Source: Candidatus Nomurabacteria bacterium (GTDB lineage Bacteria; Patescibacteriota; Minisyncoccia; Phycocordibacterales; CALRBL01). From it: 64,000 bases of DNA. A program made the position numbers and the translations under genes. Under the pieces are notes generated by a model. The model was not told where the DNA came from. It ran no database searches and saw nothing but the letters and a program-made list of their open reading frames with translations. The stretch is taken from NCBI GenBank assembly GCA_963834935.1, contig CAWIDS010000001.1, positions 367,642 through 431,641 of the forward strand, read 5' to 3'. This document shows positions 2,893-63,197 of this stretch, in pieces; within the stretch, counting starts at the first letter, position 1; every line of letters begins with the position of its first letter.

Positions 2893-3516
2893 ATGAATTC
2901 AAAAATCACAGCAAAAAAAGGATTCTCATTGCTTGAAATGCTCGTGGTGATGGGCATTCTCACCCTTTTCATCGCCCTTGTGTCCGATTTCCAAGCGAAG
3001 ATATTTATCTATGACGAAATCTTCCAGGGAGGAAATACCACGGATTTGGAAGCACTTTCAGTACTCAAGACCATGGCTGCCGAGATGAGGTCGATGTCGC
3101 CTTCGAGTGCAGGTGCTTATCCGATAGATAATGCAGGAACGAGCACAATCACCTTTTACGATGATATCAATAATGACGGCAGCAAGGAGAAAATACGCTA
3201 TTTTTTATCAGGGACGACGCTCGAGCGCGGGCTTACATATGGATCAGGCAATCCTGTCGTTTATAATCCGTCATCCGAGACGATCACCACGCTCATCACC
3301 AATGTCCGCAATGCAAGCACGACGCCGATCTTCAGTTACTATGACGATACATATTACGGACAAGCCTCTTCAACCCCGCTTTCGTACCCTTTGAATATTT
3401 TCAGCATAAGCCTGGTCAATATGAATGTCATCATTGATGCTGATCCGAACAAGCCGCTGTCGCCGCTTAATGAATCGACAAGCGTAACCATCCGTAATCT
3501 GAAGAATAATTTATGA
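2893..3516 (+). CDS. Type IV pilin / pseudopilin-like protein
   Basis: ATG at 2893 gives MNSKITAKKGFSLLEMLVVMGILTLF, a prepilin-type N-terminal motif with Glu5. The six-frame ORF extends further upstream, but that extension overlaps the previous gene. Confidence 0.7.
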   Translation: MNSKITAKKGFSLLEMLVVMGILTLFIALVSDFQAKIFIYDEIFQGGNTTDLEALSVLKTMAAEMRSMSPSSAGAYPIDNAGTSTITFYDDINNDGSKEKIRYFLSGTTLERGLTYGSGNPVVYNPSSETITTLITNVRNASTTPIFSYYDDTYYGQASSTPLSYPLNIFSISLVNMNVIIDADPNKPLSPLNESTSVTIRNLKNNL

Positions 3517-3776
3517 AAAACTTAGCGAAAAAAAATAAAGGCTTCATGCTCGTGGGCATTCTCGTCTTCGCTTCGATCGCCGTGCTCATCATGAGCACTA
3601 TCGTCAGCGGAGCTGTGTCGAATATCGAGCTTACGGAACGGTTGACTGACAAGGAAAAAGCATTCCAGATAGCGGAAGCAGGCGTGGATTATTATCGCTG
3701 GCACCTCGCTCATGCCTCGCAGGATTTTCAGGACGGCACTGGCAAATCGGGTCCTTATGTCCCATCAATTCTATGA
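3513..3776 (+). CDS. Minor pilin / PilX-like N-terminal module (possible 5' part of a frameshifted larger gene)
   Basis: MKNLAKKNKGFMLVGILVFASIAVLIMS is a pilin-like N-terminal TM segment without Glu5, then AEAGVDYYRW. The ORF ends by a frame change that overlaps the next ORF. Confidence 0.4.
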   Translation: MKNLAKKNKGFMLVGILVFASIAVLIMSTIVSGAVSNIELTERLTDKEKAFQIAEAGVDYYRWHLAHASQDFQDGTGKSGPYVPSIL

Positions 3777-4983
3777 CAAGGATAGCAATCTGATCGGAAG
3801 CTTCTCGCTGAATATAATTCCACCGCTTACCGGCTCGACGGTAGTGAAGGTCCAATCGACGGGTAATGTGGTCACTTCTTCGGAAAGCCGTGAGATACAA
3901 TCTACTCTTGCTATTCCGTCGCTCGCCCAATTCGCTGTCGTTGCCAACGACAATATGCGTTTCGGCCAAGGAACTACGGTATACGGCCCTATCCAATCCA
4001 ATTATGGAATCCATTTTGATGGCGTCGCTCACAATCTTGTCTCGAGCGCACTTTCTTCATACGTCGATCCAGACACAGGCTACACGCAGTTTGGAGTTTA
4101 CACTGCGGTCATTCCCCCGCCAGGAAGCGGCACGTACAGCGGATCCATTCCAGCTGAGGCTCCACCAAGCACGCCCGCAGCCCGGAGCGACGTCTTCATG
4201 GCAGGCAGGCAATTTCCCGTGACGACATTTGATTTTACCGGAATGACCACCGACCTTGCTTCGATGAAAGCCACTGCCCAGGCTTCCACCTCGAACAGCT
4301 ACTTCGCAAGCTCCGGCTCTTACGGCTACAACATTATCCTGAAGACGAACGGAACATACGATTTATACAAGGTGACGCAGCTGCAAACGCCTACGAATTC
4401 ATGCACCACTTATAGCGATCCCAGTCCAGCGACAGTAGGATGGGGATCGTGGTCAGTCAAGACGCAGCAATTCCTCAAGAATTATACTTTTCCTTCAAGC
4501 GGAGTGATATTCATCGAGGATAATGTCTGGGTCGAAGGTCAGATCAATCATGCTCGCCTTACTATCGCTTCAGGAAAATTCCCCGATAATCCTTCGACCA
4601 GGACAAGTATTACGGTGAACAACAACCTTCTCTACACTAATTTTGACGGAACTGACTCGCTCTCTCTCGTCTCTCAGAATAATGTCAATGTGGGAATGTA
4701 CGGCTTGGACACACTTACGATCGATGGCGCTTTGGTTGCCCAGAACGGCAGAGTCGGCCGTTTTTACTATGCTACGCAATGCAGCCCTTATGCCACTCGC
4801 ACCAATCTCACCCTTTACGGCATGATTGCTACCAACACTCGCTACGGCTTTGCTTACAGCGATGGCACGGGCTATACCAACCGCTATCTCAACTACGACG
4901 GCAACATGCTTTACGCCCCTCCGCCTGATTTTCCTTTGACTTCGAGTCTTTACAGCGTGATCGGCTGGCAATCGATTAAGTAG
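3712..4983 (+). CDS. Large pilus-associated protein, probably the C-terminal body of a PilX/PilY-like minor pilin
   Basis: The 423-aa ORF overlaps the preceding pilin-like ORF by 65 nt in another frame. It is Ser/Thr/Asn/Gly-rich with beta-rich repeats and has no N-terminal signal of its own. Confidence 0.45.
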   Translation: MPRRIFRTALANRVLMSHQFYDKDSNLIGSFSLNIIPPLTGSTVVKVQSTGNVVTSSESREIQSTLAIPSLAQFAVVANDNMRFGQGTTVYGPIQSNYGIHFDGVAHNLVSSALSSYVDPDTGYTQFGVYTAVIPPPGSGTYSGSIPAEAPPSTPAARSDVFMAGRQFPVTTFDFTGMTTDLASMKATAQASTSNSYFASSGSYGYNIILKTNGTYDLYKVTQLQTPTNSCTTYSDPSPATVGWGSWSVKTQQFLKNYTFPSSGVIFIEDNVWVEGQINHARLTIASGKFPDNPSTRTSITVNNNLLYTNFDGTDSLSLVSQNNVNVGMYGLDTLTIDGALVAQNGRVGRFYYATQCSPYATRTNLTLYGMIATNTRYGFAYSDGTGYTNRYLNYDGNMLYAPPPDFPLTSSLYSVIGWQSIK

Positions 4984-14831: not shown

Positions 14832-15055
14832 GTTTTTTATTTAACGAAGAAAGCTGTCTCCTTTTGAGGGGTGACAGCTTTTGTGTTCTTGTTGCTTTCG
14901 CCGGAGTAAACTCCGACCAATTTTCGGGACGAATCCCTATTCTGGAAACTTGCGCTCCGAACCCCTTCTTTTTTTAAGTTGGTTTGGCAACAAGAACAAG
15001 TACATTCTATATTATTGAAATACCCTGTCAAATATTTTTTTTTGGGGAAATAAAA

Positions 15056-25331: not shown

Positions 25332-25359
25332 TTGACATTAGCCCAATCTTTGCTAGTAT
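25332..25359 (+). promoter_or_regulatory. Internal promoter between thrC-like gene and rpsS (TTGACAT-N-TGCTAGTAT)
   Basis: TTGACA at 25332–25337 and TGcTAGTAT ending at 25359, with a 16-nt spacer. Confidence 0.5.
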
Positions 25360-43161: not shown

Positions 43162-43434
43162 ATGTTCATGAGATCTCCGGAAAGCCCCATATCCCAGGAA
43201 AGTCTCGACTCCTTTTTGGAGAGTTTTCAAGCTGACTCGCTTTCCGAAATGAAGCAGCGTCTTGCAGAATATTTTCATCCGCTCATTGGCGAATCGACCA
43301 TCGAAGCGCATTACGATGATTTTGAGAAGGGGACAGGATCAATCATGTTCGGTGACAGGAAAATCGGCACCTTTGAAATATTTCCGTTCAAGGCCGTCTT
43401 AGATAAGGAGGAGATGATTAATTGTCTTAGTTAG
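43162..43434 (+). CDS. Hypothetical small protein
   Basis: 90-aa acidic ORF with no motifs. Its 3' end overlaps the putative ssrA promoter. Confidence 0.3.
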   Translation: MFMRSPESPISQESLDSFLESFQADSLSEMKQRLAEYFHPLIGESTIEAHYDDFEKGTGSIMFGDRKIGTFEIFPFKAVLDKEEMINCLS

Positions 43435-43450
43435 TTTTTCGTGTTATAAT
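43422..43450 (+). promoter_or_regulatory. Sigma70-like promoter of ssrA: TTGTCT-N17-TATAAT with TG extension
   Basis: TTGTCT at 43422–43427 and TATAAT at 43445–43450, preceded by TGt. The position is about 28 nt upstream of the mature tmRNA 5' end, consistent with a processed precursor. Confidence 0.5.
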
Positions 43451-43477: not shown

Positions 43478-43880
43478 GGGAATGACAGGCATCGACAGGA
43501 GAAGCCATTCCTGATTTGCGGCATAGAGCTCCGGGAACTCTTTAAAAGCCCGGAAAACCGAAATGCAAAATCTGCACTTTCAATGGCCAAGTCTGTTGTG
43601 TCTCCGTATTTCGGAGCCAACGATTTCGCTTTCGCTTACGTCCGAGCCTAAATTTTAGACTCGCGCCTAGCGACGCTTCATGGTCCTAGTCCTCTCGGGA
43701 ACAGCGGAGTGTTATAAAGATGAGGATGCTTCGCCAAGCGCCCCGTACGGCGACCAAGACAAGGGGCAAAGCTGACGACCATTTTGTTGATTTCAAGGCC
43801 GTCATTCGAACAAATCATCTACATGCCGTAGATTAGTCAGGAACCTCTCTTGCACCCGAGTTCAATTCTCGGCATTTCCA
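43478..43880 (+). ncRNA. ssrA: Transfer-messenger RNA (tmRNA, ssrA)
   Basis: The 5' GGGAATG pairs with the 3' CATTTCC as an acceptor stem with a G3·U wobble. The conserved ATCGACAGG box follows the 5' strand. A T-arm CCGAG-TTCAATT-CTCGG precedes the 3' acceptor strand and a discriminator A. An internal tag ORF GCC AAC GAT TTC GCT TTC GCT TAC GTC CGA GCC TAA encodes ANDFAFAYVRA. smpB lies about 2.6 kb downstream. Confidence 0.8.
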
Positions 43881-44014
43881 CTATTTTATTGTCTTCAAGT
43901 AGGCTTTGTAAGATAGGGCGTCCAGAGACGTCCTTTTAAAACGTGAAGGGCCCCAAGCCCTCCGGATCGATATACATTATCAAGGTCGCTTAACATTATT
44001 AGCATTATAAACAT

Positions 44015-46075
44015 ATGATTAAAAAAATTATTGCCATATTGGCAGCATTTCTACTCACATTGAATTTCATCCCGTCGCTGGTGTCTGCTGATCAGACAAT
44101 GGTCACCCAGACTACCACTACCACGGCAGCAACCATTCCGTCAGGTTTCGTATTCACTCGCGACCTTACGGTAGGAAGCACCGGACAAGATGTCGTGGAG
44201 CTTCAAGCATATCTTGTCGGCAAGGGATTCTTGGTCATTCCTCCAGGAGTGTCCGAAGGATATTTCGGTCCGCTTACTAAGGCAGCTCTCGGCTTGTTTC
44301 AGGCAAGCGTGAACATTTCGCCTTCAGTCGGATATTTCGGCCCGATTACCAGGAACTATCTCAACACTCATGGGGTAGTGACCGCCTTTCCTGACGGCTG
44401 TACTTCGAACGTCGGTTTCAGCACAACCACCGGCGCTTCGTGCGACACGTCAGGCGCACAGCAGCTCTGCCCTAACGGAAACACCCTTCAGAGCAATTGT
44501 ACTGTACCTTCAACCGTAGCTCTCTGCCCTAACGGAATGACTCTTGCAAGCAACTGTACTGCAGCTCCTGTAACATCATCAACTGGTTCTACTGCTACCG
44601 GCATCACTACTCCAGGCGCAGAAGGTATCTTGAGCATCACTCAGGGTCCTATCTCAACCTCAGTAGTCAACGTCGGCCAGACTCAGGCTCCGGTATTGAC
44701 AGTTCGAGCTCAGGCTCAGAACTCAGATATCGCCGTCCAGCGAATCACTGTTGACGTTGGTTCATCAACCACCATCTACAACAAGATCTACAGCCAGTTC
44801 TACGTTACAGACGGAACCAATGTCCTAGCGACAGTTCCTCTTAACTCGACTACTGTAGTTCAGAGCGGTACAGATTACGTAGTCAACCTTACTGGCTTCA
44901 ACATCCTTGTTCCAAAGAACACCTACAAGGATATCGTCATCAAGGCTGACTTGTTCTCTTCGATCGACTCAAACTACATCGCTTCTCCTTACGTATTAAG
45001 CGTAATGTCAAACGGAGTTCGTGGAATTGACGGAGCAGGAATCGATCAGTACGGTCCAACAGGCTCAATCAGCCAGACCATTACTATCAACCCAAGCTTG
45101 ACTGACAATGCTCAGGCAAACCTTTCGGCTGATCCTTCGACTCCCCTTACCAACACACAGGCAGTTACTGACACGACAAACAATCAGTACCTCGGCCTTC
45201 CTGTCCTCTTGTTCGATATCAATGCTCAGAATGACTCATTGCATATCCACAACTTGACAGTTCGATTCACAAGCAACGCTACAAGCACATTGACCGCCGC
45301 TTACTTGTACCAGGGTTCAACTCCTATACAGTCAGCTTCGATCAACAGCAGCAACGGTACAGCAGTGTTCAACAACATTCCTGACAATACCGCAGCAGCA
45401 GTCGTCGCTTTGAACTCGACACAGCCATTCACTGTACGTGCTGACGTAACAAACGTAGGAGTAACTCCAACGACTGTTACTGCAACTATCAACAGCGGAG
45501 ACCTTGTCGCTTACAACTCTCTTGACGAGAATGCGATCGTCAACGGATCAGCTGTAGGAAACACACAGACAGTAGTAGGAAAGGGACCACAGTTCAGCCT
45601 CGCATCGACGCCGACGATTTCGGTCAATGGGGTCAATGAGAGCGGAAGCACCCAGAGTACATCTACTGTGACAGCGACGTTCTACGTCAACGTCAAAGCA
45701 GTAGGCTCGAACGTCTACTTCCATGATCAGACCCTTCCTAATCCAATGTTTACCTTCAAAGTCTTTGACGCTGCAGGAAATGACGTGACATCTCAAGTTG
45801 CTGCCACAAGCTCAGGATTCATCATCCCTACCGGATCAGGAGTCGTGACTTCAGGTCAGCCAGCTCACACGTTCTACATCCCACAGTCGAACTCAGCAAC
45901 TATCGGTCCAGTGACCTTTAGCTTCGCAGGTAAGTATGGAAACGCTCCTCTCACGAACGGACCATATTCAGTTGAGATATCGGGAATCAATTCATCGACT
46001 GATGGAGTGAACTTCACGACAACCAACTACATGGACGGTCTATCAACATGGAGGACAAACGGAGTCAATCCTTAG
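44015..46075 (+). CDS. Secreted Ser/Thr-rich protein with peptidoglycan-binding-like domain
   Basis: The signal peptide is MIKKIIAILAAFLLTLNFIPSLVSA. STGQDVVELQAYLVGKGF...GYFGPLTKAALGLFQ matches the PG_binding_1 pattern (two repeats). About 550 aa of T/S/N-rich sequence follows. Confidence 0.6.
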   Translation: MIKKIIAILAAFLLTLNFIPSLVSADQTMVTQTTTTTAATIPSGFVFTRDLTVGSTGQDVVELQAYLVGKGFLVIPPGVSEGYFGPLTKAALGLFQASVNISPSVGYFGPITRNYLNTHGVVTAFPDGCTSNVGFSTTTGASCDTSGAQQLCPNGNTLQSNCTVPSTVALCPNGMTLASNCTAAPVTSSTGSTATGITTPGAEGILSITQGPISTSVVNVGQTQAPVLTVRAQAQNSDIAVQRITVDVGSSTTIYNKIYSQFYVTDGTNVLATVPLNSTTVVQSGTDYVVNLTGFNILVPKNTYKDIVIKADLFSSIDSNYIASPYVLSVMSNGVRGIDGAGIDQYGPTGSISQTITINPSLTDNAQANLSADPSTPLTNTQAVTDTTNNQYLGLPVLLFDINAQNDSLHIHNLTVRFTSNATSTLTAAYLYQGSTPIQSASINSSNGTAVFNNIPDNTAAAVVALNSTQPFTVRADVTNVGVTPTTVTATINSGDLVAYNSLDENAIVNGSAVGNTQTVVGKGPQFSLASTPTISVNGVNESGSTQSTSTVTATFYVNVKAVGSNVYFHDQTLPNPMFTFKVFDAAGNDVTSQVAATSSGFIIPTGSGVVTSGQPAHTFYIPQSNSATIGPVTFSFAGKYGNAPLTNGPYSVEISGINSSTDGVNFTTTNYMDGLSTWRTNGVNP

Positions 46076-46117
46076 TCTCTCTTGGATAGTCGCTCACTGA
46101 ACGTGACAAAACTAAGA

Positions 46118-46150
46118 CCGCCTCATTCAAGGGGCGGTTTTAGTTTTGTC
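46118..46150 (+). terminator. Intrinsic terminator after the 44015 gene
   Basis: ACCGCCTCATTCAAGGGGCGGT hairpin followed by TTTTAGTTTTG. A near-identical sequence recurs at 63148. Confidence 0.6.
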
Positions 46151-46159
46151 TCAACGGTG

Positions 46160-46187
46160 TTGACATAGAAAAAGAGCATGCTAGTAT
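46160..46187 (+). promoter_or_regulatory. Sigma70-like promoter TTGACAT-N-TGCTAGTAT
   Basis: TTGACA at 46160–46165 with a 16-nt spacer, and TGcTAGTAT at 46179–46187. The architecture and sequence are nearly identical to the promoter at 25332. Confidence 0.45.
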
Positions 46188-46430
46188 CTTTTTCATACCA
46201 GCTTCCGCTCTCATGGTGAGCAGGGGAAGCAGGCGATCCAATAAAAATATGATCAAATCAGACCATGGCCAAAAGGCCAATTGTCAGCGTAATATCCCGG
46301 TGAGCCTCCGCGGCTGTAGCAATTATTCCATCTTGGCTTCCAGCGGCGTCGCCCTCCCTCGTCGAGACTGATCGCCCCGCGGCGGCCGAAGCCTCCCGCC
46401 AAGGCCACATCGGCTGCTGCCGCGATCAAA

Positions 46431-46480
46431 ATGCCGGTCCCATCATGGGGGCCGGCATTTACTCTTCCTTTTTTATTTTA
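46431..46480. terminator. Bidirectional terminator (GC hairpin ATGCCGGTCCCATCATGGGGGCCGGCAT plus T-rich tract) shared by the upstream GC-rich element and smpB
   Basis: Hairpin followed by TTACTCTTCCTTTTTTATTTTAT on the plus strand. It lies immediately downstream of the smpB stop on the minus strand. Confidence 0.55.
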
Positions 46481-46916
46481 TCTTCCTGCCGATATCCCTT
46501 TCAGTATCCCGTTTCTTAATGCTTTGGCGCTTGTCGAATTTCTTCTTGCTTTCGGCGATGGCTATGTCGATCTTTATCTTGTTCTTCGAAGTATAAATCG
46601 AAAGGGGAATGAGGGTCTGCTTCTTCTTCGAATCGATGTCCGCCATCTCTTTTATCTCCTTCTTGTGGAGGAGTAACTTTCTGGGACGATGGGCGTCATA
46701 TGAAGAAAGAGCGTTGGCTGGCTGGAAAGCAGGAATATTCGCTCCGACGAGGAATGCTTCGCCGCCGCGCACTATTATATATGAGCCCTCAAGAGAAGAG
46801 CCTCCTTGCCTCAGGGATTTCACCTCGGTGCCCAGAAGCTCGATGCCTGCCGACATCTTTTCTTTGATCTCGTAGTTGAAATATGCCTTTTTGTTAGATG
46901 AAAGCTCCATGATCAA
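46473..46916 (-). CDS. smpB: SsrA-binding protein SmpB
   Basis: NKKAYFNYEI.E....GIEL.GTEVKS.......L..SY...........GANI..Y.......HRPRKLLLHKKEI is the SmpB signature. Confidence 0.9.
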   Translation of the reverse strand: MIMELSSNKKAYFNYEIKEKMSAGIELLGTEVKSLRQGGSSLEGSYIIVRGGEAFLVGANIPAFQPANALSSYDAHRPRKLLLHKKEIKEMADIDSKKKQTLIPLSIYTSKNKIKIDIAIAESKKKFDKRQSIKKRDTERDIGRKIK

Positions 46917-46947
46917 ATGTTAGCATGACTTATCCTATTATTGTATA

Positions 46948-48846
46948 ATGCACCATACTATGCCTGAAAATAAACACAAGAAGAATCAGAAACGGACCAG
47001 GATGCCCCGAAGCAATAGCCTGATAAATGCCCTTGTCATATTCATCCTGCTCATCATTGCTTATGCTTTTCTGGTCTCTCGCGATACATCCAATAATTCC
47101 ATCACTCTTTCCGACCTTGCCAACGACGTCAATGCCGGAAAAGTCAGTGAAATCGTCGTAAGGGGACAGGATCTTACTATCACCTATGCCGACAAGACCA
47201 TAAAGACTTCAAAAAAAGAGGCTGAAGATTCGCTTTCCACTACTCTTGTGAATTATGGCGTGCCTGCGGCAAAGATTGACGCGGTAAAGATTGACATCGA
47301 GAACGAGGGAGGCTTCGCCTATTGGTTCATCAATCTCGCTCCGTTCGTCATTCCGCTCATCGGAGTGGCTTTCTTCATCTGGATAATTACCCGCCAGATG
47401 AAAGGGACGGGAATGCAGGCATTCAGCTTCGGCCAATCGAAGGCGCGCATGACAGGCCCTGATGACAAGAAGCAGCGTGTTACCTTCAAAGATGTCGCTG
47501 GCGCCAAGGAAGCCAAGGAAGAGCTTTCAGAGATCGTTGACTTTCTGAAGAATCCGAAAAAGTTCTTGGACATCGGTGCCCGCATTCCGAAGGGAATATT
47601 GCTTATGGGTGCGCCTGGAACCGGAAAGACTTTGCTTGCCCGCGCTGTAGCTGGAGAGAGCAATGTCTCATTCTTCTCGATCTCCGGTTCGGAATTCGTC
47701 GAGATGTTCGTCGGAGTCGGTGCTTCGCGTGTCCGTGATCTTTTCAAGGTCGCCAAGCAGAACGCGCCCGCAATCATCTTCGTTGATGAGATCGATGCTG
47801 TTGGCCGTGTTCGAGGAACCGGAATGGGCGGCGGAAACGACGAGCGAGAACAGACCTTGAACCAGATTCTTGTCGAAATGGATGGCTTTGAACCGAACGA
47901 GAAAGTGATCGTCATGGCAGCCACTAACCGTCCCGATGTCCTTGACCCTGCGCTTCTTCGCCCGGGCCGCTTTGACCGCCGTGTCACTATAGACCTTCCT
48001 GATCGGTCTGATCGCGAGGCAATACTTGAAGTGCATTCAAAAGAAAAACCTTTTGCCGAAGATGTCGATTTGAAACTGATTGCAGAGCGAACGCCGGGAT
48101 TTTCCGGCGCCGACCTTTATTCGCTTATGAATGAAGGAGCTATCCTCGCGGCTCGCGAGAACCGCACTAAAGTTGCCCAGTTCGACCTCATCCGTTCGAT
48201 CGAAAAAGTGATGCTCGGTCCTGAACGCCGCAGCCATATCCTTTCAGTAAAAGAAAAAGAGCTCACTGCCTATCACGAAGCCGGACACGCCATTGTTGCT
48301 TCGGTCCTTCCGTATGCCGACCCGGTGCACAAGGTTTCTATCATCTCGCGCGGCCGTGCCGCCGGCTATACTCTCAAGCTTCCGCTTGAAGACAGGAAGC
48401 TTCAATCCAAAAAGGAATTCCTCGACGATATTGCTGTCTCTCTCGGGGGCTATGTCGTCGAGAAGGAGATCTACGGCGACCTCACCACAGGTTCTTCGAA
48501 CGACCTACAGGTCTCGAGCGCCTTGGCGCGCGACATGGTCACCAAATACGGAATGTCCGAGAGGATCGGTCCGATCGCCCTTGAAAGTTCCGGCGGTCGT
48601 GCTATGTTTGGTCGCGGGGTGGAAGACAAGGAATATTCAGCGGAAGTCGGCAAGCTCATCGATGAAGAAGTATCCAAAATAATGAATGAAGCGATGAAGA
48701 AGACCGAAGAAATCGTCGCTACTCACCGAAAGGCGCTTGATGCGATCGCCCAGCGTCTCGTCGCTGTCGAGACTATTGAAAGGGAAGAGTTCGACAATCT
48801 TCTCATCGCCAACGGCATCGTACCCAAAAAGAAGGAAATCGTTTAA
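46948..48846 (+). CDS. ftsH: ATP-dependent zinc metalloprotease FtsH
   Basis: An N-terminal TM pair, the AAA Walker A ([17 protein letters not shown]), the SRH, and the HEAGHAIV zinc motif. Confidence 0.95.
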
Positions 48847-62538: not shown

Positions 62539-63147
62539 ATAGCTTTCGCCAACTGCTCACTCGTCGGCCGAGTAAGTTTGTAGATGCCGTCCTTCAAATT
62601 CGGGATGTAATGGAGCTCGGTTGTGGTCTTAAAATAGGTCATTATTTCGTCAACAGTTCGGAGCATTGTAGGACTCGCAACCATGAAAGGACTCTCCTGC
62701 CTTTGCAGAGACTCATCTTTTAATAGTTCGAAGGTAGTATTTAACCTAGGGACCCACTTCGGGAAAAGTCTTTGTGTCGCTACTCATGCATGATCGTTGA
62801 TCGAACGGGACGAGAAGTCAATGTAAGCAAACTTGAACTTCCTATAAACCACTATCTGGATTACAATTACCTCATTGGAATACACGCCTCGCTCCCCTTG
62901 GGGCACACAGAGGCCCCGATGCACACAAAATCAAGGACCAAAAATATTCAAAGGATCGATTGAATAACTCATCTTTTTATTAAGACTCTTTCATTTGGAA
63001 AGCGTGGGGTTCGTGGTTCTCTTGGGGATCGCCTGTCGGTATGGGTCTGGGCTGGGCACTGTTCATCATCCCGCTCGGATATTTTCTCCTTCTGCTTCAT
63101 ATGGCAGGAATTCTCCACTAAATAAAATATCAAAAGCCTATAGCAAA

Positions 63148-63178
63148 ACCGCCTCAATCAAGGGGCGGTTTTCTAAAC
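63148..63178. terminator. Terminator ACCGCCTCAATCAAGGGGCGGTTTT (near-copy of the 46118 terminator)
   Basis: Hairpin plus T-tract, downstream of the minus-strand 63198 gene. Confidence 0.5.
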
Positions 63179-63197
63179 TGTAAGGCGTTAGAGACAA

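Follow-up and report, generated by a model that had tools for sequence, protein, structure and literature searches.

The spacer between a surface protein gene and smpB in this patescibacterial genome may hold a gene for a small non-coding RNA that is specific to the lineage and transcribed on its own, read from the plus strand and about 265–285 nt long. We favour this reading tentatively and treat the element as a candidate. The element has a promoter match, hairpins, a terminator and an anomalous GC content; its fold is asymmetric between the strands, and it has no coding signal and no match to a known RNA family. From these features we infer that the element is transcribed and its RNA stable. 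The RNA would probably act by base-pairing, and one possible target can be named. The first-pass annotation had suggested an unclassified sRNA or riboregulator near the trans-translation locus. The promoter, the strand-specific fold, the GC content, the terminator, the lack of coding signal and the lack of an Rfam match all agree with an sRNA, but we found no functional tie to trans-translation.

Regulatory RNAs of the Patescibacteria (candidate phyla radiation) are, as far as we are aware, almost wholly uncharacterised, and a literature search for sRNAs in these bacteria found no relevant study. Patescibacteria have tiny genomes and few transcription factors, and this genome at least has few Shine-Dalgarno sites. 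A stand-alone sRNA gene, once confirmed, would offer a useful way into their regulatory RNAs. At present the element is a prediction from a single genome.

Location of the element

The window, the whole 64,000-nt stretch of DNA that was analysed, comes from a host genome of 47.6% GC belonging to the Patescibacteria (Paceibacteria/Nomurabacteria-like). The element occupies a spacer of about 270 bases, with the gene for a 686-aa surface protein on one side and smpB on the other, and two tRNA-Thr genes are also found in the neighbourhood. The source genome has a complete ssrA, 2.6 kb from smpB and convergent with it, whose tag was read as ending GANDFAFAYVRA, the same ending as in the closest relative. 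The surrounding features are as follows.

43478–43883, plus strand: tmRNA gene (ssrA), Rfam match of 79.7 bits
44015–46075, plus strand: gene for the 686-aa PG_binding_1 surface protein
46105–46150, plus strand: intrinsic terminator of the 686-aa PG_binding_1 gene, with 18-nt inverted-repeat arms, 94% complementary, and a 10-nt loop, followed by TTTTAGTTTTGT; it marks the left boundary of the element
46473–46916, minus strand: smpB, stop codon 46473–46475, convergent with the candidate RNA element
46948–48846, plus strand: ftsH

That the gene starting at 44015 ends in a terminator had been noted before, and the hairpin at 46105–46150 bears this out. Because the gene has its own terminator, the element is not its 3'UTR. 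A near twin of this terminator stands at 63145–63172, and a 79% paralog (P0122) of the 686-aa protein is encoded on the same source contig.

Promoter

A consensus-like promoter had been proposed at 46160–46187, and we found the proposal to be sound. We searched both strands of the 64 kb for top-grade sites, defined as those matching the consensus at 10 of 12 positions and carrying the extended −10 TG, or matching at 11 of 12. There are six, against 1.7 ± 1.1 in block shuffles, and the element's site, with ten matches and the TG, is among them. The others lie mostly in the gaps between ORFs. One, at 25332–25359, lies within the 86-nt spacer in front of rpsS (S19) and is identical to the element's in its −35 and −10 hexamers, their spacing and the TG, while another, at 43422–43450, is similar and precedes the tmRNA gene. 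The same type of promoter in front of rpsS and a similar one in front of the tmRNA gene suggest that the organism uses this promoter type. The element's promoter, as predicted from its consensus match, is a good copy of its type. Judged by the same match, the element would have a promoter of its own, placed 3' of the upstream gene's terminator, as expected of an independent sRNA gene.

GC content

At about 46290–46450 the GC content, taken in 100-nt steps, is 0.68–0.70, against a mean of 0.476 for the window (sd 0.053 over 150-nt pieces). The highest-GC 150-nt pieces of the whole 64 kb fall in the element, above the spacers of the tRNAs and the tmRNA; other inter-ORF spacers run overall from about 0.24 to 0.50. 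The enrichment is shorter than first described. It had been put at some 250 nt, which is right for the 3' part of about 140 nt, but the first 100 nt or so past the promoter (46190–46290) have a GC content of 0.44–0.48, which is ordinary for the genome. Among spacers otherwise so AT-rich, the tract must either be kept by selection or have been acquired recently.

The plus strand of 46290–46430 has 54 C and 37 G, making the minus strand the G-rich one. An excess of C over G on the proposed RNA strand is atypical of highly structured RNAs, and we counted it against the sRNA reading.

Predicted fold of the putative transcript

Starting at the inferred transcription start and ending at the terminator, the putative transcript (46194–46478) folds with an MFE of −114.5 kcal/mol, a z-score of −4.4 relative to dinucleotide shuffles, none of 200 of which did as well. 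The minus strand of the unit reaches only −1.8 to −2.1. Among 212 sampled 285-nt stretches of the genome (background −0.22 ± 1.34) the plus strand of the element ranks first, with a z-score of −4.96, a comparison that favours the element through its exact placement. The parts of the predicted unit, from the promoter onwards, are listed here.

46160–46187, plus strand: predicted sigma70-type promoter; −35 TTGACA at 46160–46165, 16-nt spacer, extended −10 TG at 46179–46180, −10 TAGTAT at 46182–46187; 10/12 consensus match
46194–46195, plus strand: inferred transcription start, 7–8 nt after the −10 hexamer, from promoter geometry alone
46198–46233, plus strand: 5' stem-loop CCAGCUUCCGCUCUCAUGGUGAGCAGGGGAAGCAGG of the MFE structure; z −3.3 for the fragment 46194–46235
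46234–46260, plus strand: A/U-rich linker CGAUCCAAUAAAAAUAUGAUCAAAUCA, mostly single-stranded in the predicted MFE structure
46261–46285, plus strand: small hairpin GACCAUGGCCAAAAGGCCAAUUGUC, in both the MFE and centroid structures
46294–46368, plus strand: first half of the C-rich, GC-rich core, which extends over 46294–46428 (GC 0.68–0.70), with CCUCC-type runs GCCUCCGCGG at 46304–46313 and CCCUCCCUC at 46354–46362
46369–46428, plus strand: 60-nt GC-rich hairpin in the MFE and centroid structures, with a 7-bp closing stem, an 11-bp stem containing two G-U pairs and a C-rich apical loop, CCCGCCA
46429–46478, both strands: bidirectional terminator hairpin, with a 13-bp stem (8 G-C pairs) at 46429–46460; z −5.8 on the plus strand and −3.8 on the minus strand

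Both the GC content and the predicted stability of the spacer are well above the genome background, with the excess stability located in three hairpins only: the 5' stem-loop, the hairpin at 46365–46428 and the terminator. The centre of the GC tract, 46290–46365, has no excess structure (z about −0.1). The linker's sole pairing in the MFE structure is with the U tail of the terminator, which we take to be a folding artefact. Several complementary GC segments had been picked out by eye; GGCTGCTGCC and GCCTCCGCGGC are indeed present, but the one quoted as GCCGCGGCGG actually reads CCCCGCGGCGGCC. The predicted fold pairs GCGGCGGCCGA with UCGGCUGCUGC.

The 60-nt hairpin is strand-asymmetric: the fragment 46365–46428 gives z −4.4 on the plus strand and −1.4 on the minus strand. 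The difference comes from its two G-U pairs, which on the minus strand would be A-C mismatches.

The terminal hairpin had been described as a 7-bp GC hairpin, which has to be corrected: its stem is almost twice as long, and it also serves smpB. Its tails are T-rich on the plus strand, where a long T run at 46469–46478 starts 8 nt past the stem, and UUUUGAU on the minus strand. The latter tail suggests that the hairpin is also, and perhaps primarily, the terminator of smpB. The element ends in an intrinsic terminator, then, but as one held in common with smpB it is not specific to the element. Without it the z-scores for the body fall to −2.25 on the plus strand and −1.29 on the minus strand, and roughly half of the signal in the predicted fold comes from a terminator that smpB needs anyway.

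Searches for homologs and known families

It had been noted that no RNase P, SRP or 6S RNA was recognisable by eye. The search agrees with this: cmscan of 46100–46500 against Rfam 15 on both strands gave nothing at the gathering score, with tmRNA, 6S, SRP, RNase P, 6C, riboswitches and ribozymes among the models. Relaxing the threshold to E≤10 brought in only fragments of miRNA, CRISPR-DR and lncRNA models at 11–21 bits, against thresholds of 35–100, which is chance level.

We then looked for the element itself. The smpB-anchored loci of relatives comprised 80 from genomes and 80 from metagenomes, within 162 loci overall, and neither blastn (word size 7) nor nhmmer found a counterpart in more than 160 of these smpB-anchored loci. 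A single-sequence covariance model (R1, 235 nt) run against the window and 96 loci found only itself. A homolog of the 686-aa gene with 61% identity (L162) is followed by a terminator only, and the element is absent there. Plasmids and phages searched with blastn in distant mode gave no match. Two 20-mers of the element each matched once in IMG/VR, on contigs of 58–60% GC; the matches extended no further than 22 exact nt or 43 nt at 81%, and we rejected them as chance.

The lineage is thinly covered. Species-representative genomes and JGI/ENA metagenomes offer SmpB matches of at most 59–60% identity, and the nearest SmpB among some 15 billion proteins, on Logan contig L161, is 72% identical; the window's SmpB, for which exact look-ups gave no record, is alone in its 90% cluster. 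With next to nothing of this lineage sampled, failing to find homologs is no sign that the element is unconserved and may reflect sampling.

The relatives are informative about the locus. Of the 20 examined, 18 have ssrA immediately after smpB and in the same orientation, and these include the closest, L161, which is without the element. As ssrA is here 2.6 kb away and convergent, the smpB-ssrA locus has been rearranged, and the element sits in the slot that ssrA usually occupies. The neighbourhood thus looks rearranged, and not like a module that has been conserved.

Alternative explanations

The sRNA reading stays at the level of a candidate because no homolog was found, about half of the fold signal comes from the terminator and there is no functional link to trans-translation. 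Counting against it are the zero homologs in the data searched, the closest relative with ssrA in the slot, the unstructured centre of the GC tract and the dependence of the z-score on the terminator.

The main rival is a functionless spacer, either left over from the rearrangement of smpB and ssrA or a recently acquired GC-rich fragment, with a promoter match that arose by chance or drives only pervasive transcription, and with a hairpin (46429–46460) that would simply be the smpB terminator. The displaced ssrA, the lack of homologs in the data searched, the usable U tract of the hairpin on the smpB strand and the unstructured centre of the GC tract speak for it. Surveys of GC-rich intergenic regions lend this some weight, as most such spacers end as known ORFs, as 'unnamed' or as low-ranking candidates (PMC11109978). 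We nevertheless think it unlikely, if well worth keeping in mind. The promoter is of a rare top grade and repeats the hexamers, spacing and TG found before rpsS, and the asymmetry of the 60-nt hairpin favours the very strand that the promoter would transcribe. A tract of 68–70% GC should decay among AT-rich spacers unless it is very recent, and the searches of translated proteins, plasmids, phages and viral contigs turned up no donor. Nor is it a remnant of the tmRNA gene. A tmRNA remnant, a displaced 3' fragment of ssrA and an island att site were all considered and rejected, as no tmRNA model matches and there is no blastn similarity to 43478–43883; the sole resemblance to ssrA is an 11/13 match to the tmRNA 3' end at 46453–46465, which has a third, chance copy at 44043.

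Function could also lie on the minus strand, as a structured smpB 3'UTR, an sRNA derived from it or a separate minus-strand RNA in the slot of ssrA. The tract directly follows the smpB stop codon, where relatives have ssrA, and the minus strand is the G-rich one; it also carries a weak −35/−10 match (46504–46475) and a weak terminator-like hairpin (46202–46180). The match is only 9/12, however, and the hairpin has only 3 G-C pairs. The fold z of this strand is −1.8 overall and −0.4 to −1.4 for the GC core, it has no tmRNA-like signal, and a transcript leaving smpB would first run into a good terminator, where most transcription should end. We regard function on the minus strand as improbable.

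The GC-rich stretch might instead be coding. Conservation of the 57-aa ORF in relatives, pointing to a small protein, had been named in advance as refuting a non-coding element, and our tests gave no sign of a protein. There is no long ORF. The best had been given as 57 aa; we found one of 52 aa on the plus strand (46213–46371) and two of 58 aa (46253–46429) and 50 aa on the minus strand. We scored them with a 3-periodic Markov model trained on 48 long ORFs of the window. The per-codon coding score is −0.20 on the plus strand and −0.10 on the minus strand, against a mean of +0.24 and a 5th percentile of −0.03 for true genes, and no ORF of the element scores as high as the 5th percentile of in-frame windows from true genes. 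Pfam gave no match to any frame of the element. The concatenated six-frame translation matched nothing at E≤10 among 5.8 billion predicted proteins, not even itself, which indicates that the source annotation has no gene at this place. The 52-aa ORF, the only one consistent with the promoter, was also searched exhaustively with HMMER against 1.84 billion representatives and gave a sole match, to an RCC1-like protein, which we rejected as a repeat-inflated chance match over 23 residues.

The ORF on the plus strand does begin 18 nt past the inferred transcription start, and GC-rich spacers most often turn out to be missed ORFs (PMC11109978). An SD-like 4-mer is found upstream of just 9 of the 64 ORFs in the window; as genes here mostly do without a Shine-Dalgarno sequence, its lack is no argument against the 52-aa ORF. 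The start codon would, however, be buried within the predicted 5' stem-loop, and the ORF sequences are rich in Arg, Ser and Gly with no domain-like pattern. Neither coding statistics nor homologs point to a small protein gene, which leaves that reading a slim chance, and the earlier view of the element as non-coding stands.

ssrA loci are classic integration sites, and the composition of the element is foreign to the genome, so a mobile or repeated fragment (MITE- or REP-like, or a phage or island scar at ssrA) or a chimeric join in the metagenome assembly was also weighed. An imperfect A/T-rich inverted repeat (46235–46247 and 46470–46482, 13 nt, 85% complementary) brackets the core, but both this repeat and the match to the tmRNA 3' end are at chance level. 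No second copy was found within the 64-kb window, about 15% of the 432.7-kb source contig, no integrase or transposase lies nearby, plasmids and phages gave no match, and viral contigs gave only chance matches of 20–22 nt. Such an origin, too, has little to recommend it.

It is highly improbable that the element is the first member to be seen of a new Patescibacteria-specific class of structured RNA, occupying the slot vacated by ssrA and acting in trans-translation or ribosome rescue, or else as a C-rich regulator; it would represent an undescribed mode of riboregulation in reduced, host-dependent bacteria with little Shine-Dalgarno-led initiation.

Comparison with known RNAs

Returning to the candidate sRNA gene, its architecture, as read from the sequence, would be that of an ordinary stand-alone bacterial sRNA gene. 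Like genes for trans-encoded sRNAs, which have their own promoter and a Rho-independent terminator, it lies in the spacer between convergent genes. It has a strong sigma70-type promoter match of its own, and its RNA would open with a 5' stem-loop, pass through a single-stranded linker and close with a 3' hairpin and U tract. Like them, too, it lacks a coding signal and, in the data searched, is confined to one lineage. At about 270 nt it is long for the class, and the GC content of its 3' half is far above what is typical. Because architecture is all that defines the class, belonging to it carries no information on function.

The Staphylococcus Rsa RNAs, with their UCCC motifs, and the actinobacterial 6C RNA (RF01066) are sRNAs with C-rich motifs. 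The element resembles them in having C-runs that are unpaired or in loops in the predicted fold (CCUCC, CCCUCCCUC, CCCGCCA) and that could pair with G-rich, SD-like mRNA. It differs in phylum and in RNA size, and their Rfam models do not match it even at E≤10. As Shine-Dalgarno sequences are rare here, the classical target of SD masking is largely absent.

In position the element is like the tmRNA (ssrA, RF00023), directly downstream of smpB as in those 18 relatives, but it is on the opposite strand, has no tmRNA model match on either strand and coexists with a complete ssrA elsewhere.

The element is also like candidates produced by the GC-IGR pipeline for the discovery of structured non-coding RNAs (PMC6429828, PMC8632094, PMC11109978). 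Such a singleton would be labelled there 'Unnamed: insufficient evidence to classify' (PMC11109978). Like the 'unnamed' or low-ranking candidates, the element is a long spacer with a GC content far above that of other spacers, and is a singleton, too few for a consensus. In these pipelines a motif earns a name only through covariation among homologs, and in the data searched the element has none.

A possible mode of action

If the element is an sRNA gene, RNA polymerase would start about 7 nt past the extended −10 promoter. The transcript would begin with a stable 5' stem-loop, which may protect it from 5'-end-dependent decay, and a single-stranded A/U-rich linker would lead into the C-rich domain of 68–70% GC. 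The 3' end would be formed by the long GC hairpin and the intrinsic terminator shared with the convergent smpB, which would also keep the two opposing transcripts apart. Such an RNA may be a base-pairing riboregulator, whose exposed C-rich runs (CCUCC, CCCUCCCUC and the loop CCCGCCA), or its 5' arm, or both, would pair with mRNA segments that are rich in G or complementary to them.

The mRNA of the neighbouring 686-aa surface protein is a candidate target. The 5' arm of the first hairpin (46201–46214) is a perfect 14-nt complement of 45636–45649 in this mRNA (site AUGAGAGCGGAAGC). A complement this long against that gene arose in 1 of 500 shuffles of the element, although the match was noticed post hoc and its blastn E-value against the whole window is about 0.06. 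The site is far inside the coding region, and the matching segment of the element overlaps an arm that is paired in the 5' hairpin; both points count against it. We give the complement, as a possible target site predicted from base complementarity, modest weight in favour of the sRNA reading. An unrestricted RNAduplex scan for targets gave meaningless whole-length duplexes and was discarded.

The window contains a second stand-alone candidate RNA unit, which has no Rfam match.

14835–15031, minus strand: predicted unit with a promoter matching at 11/12 positions, a multi-branched fold (z −5.8) with a closing stem of 12 bp, and a terminator

Since this second unit has the same architecture, the design of promoter, structured RNA and terminator appears to recur in this genome, an observation to which we attach modest weight.

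Complementarity between the candidate small RNA and its upstream neighbour

The candidate small RNA (about 46194-46478, plus strand) lies between smpB and the gene for a 686-aa PG_binding_1 protein. The mRNA of that gene carries 14 nt (45636-45649, AUGAGAGCGGAAGC) perfectly complementary to positions 46201-46214, which form the 5' arm of the small RNA's first hairpin. Among 500 shuffles of the element, just one gave a match of this length to the gene. The complementarity, which was spotted post hoc, could mark a target site, stem from a local duplication or be fortuitous. The 686-aa protein (44015-46075) has a paralogue, P0122 (673 aa, 79% identical), encoded at another locus of the same source contig (432,723 bp), and its family, of about 600-700 aa, appears in many records labelled Patescibacteria.

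Other structured elements in the window

The window holds a second stand-alone promoter-RNA-terminator unit, at 14835-15031 on the minus strand. Its promoter is as follows:

15031-15004, minus strand, promoter (TTGACA-16-TAGAAT, 11/12)

The predicted fold occupies about 125 nt past the promoter and is multi-branched, with a 12-bp closing stem (UGUUCUUGUUGC/GCAACAAGAACA), followed by a terminator hairpin (GCUGUCACC...GGAGACAGC) and a U-rich tail. The unit has a fold z of -5.8 and no match in Rfam, and no gene follows it on the minus strand.

Near-identical terminator hairpins occur at 46105-46150 and 63145-63172 (ACCGCCTCAWTCAAGGGGCGGTTTT, 26 of 28 positions identical). The latter closes an ORF-poor stretch of 659 nt (62539-63197), within which the 285-nt window starting at 62994 (plus strand) had a fold z of -4.49, the second-best among the 212 windows of that length sampled from the genome.

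Arrangement of ssrA and smpB

The tmRNA gene ssrA (43478-43883) and smpB (46473-46916) are convergent, with 2.6 kb between them. Of 20 related loci, 18 have ssrA immediately 3' of smpB and on the same strand. ARAGORN did not report the tmRNA at 43478-43883, despite its Rfam score of 79.7 bits. By our own reading, the encoded tag would end in GANDFAFAYVRA, in common with that of L161, the locus of the closest SmpB relative. Directly upstream of the tmRNA promoter is a 90-aa ORF (43162-43434, plus strand) that may not be a real gene: its coding score is low, at -0.08 per codon, and it has no Pfam match.

A gap of 1.5 kb (3436-4968) separates smpB from ssrA in L030, the locus of another relative (Parcubacteria TrH-25oct19-144, 52.5% GC). 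GC content there peaks at 73% at about 3881-4030 and overlapping ORFs occupy both strands, and the gap showed no likeness to the candidate small RNA by sequence or covariance model.

Translation starts and the ftsH leader

The start codons of smpB and ftsH are divergent, with about 30-50 nt between them. The best match to an ftsH promoter (46920-46949) runs into the ORF's first ATG, so the start of ftsH may instead be at 46960, which would leave the mRNA a very short leader. Shine-Dalgarno motifs are absent before most genes throughout the window, including those at 44015, 46910, 46948/46960 and 25411; an SD-like 4-mer (GGAG, GAGG, AGGA or GGGG) lies within 20 nt upstream of just 9 out of 64 long ORFs.
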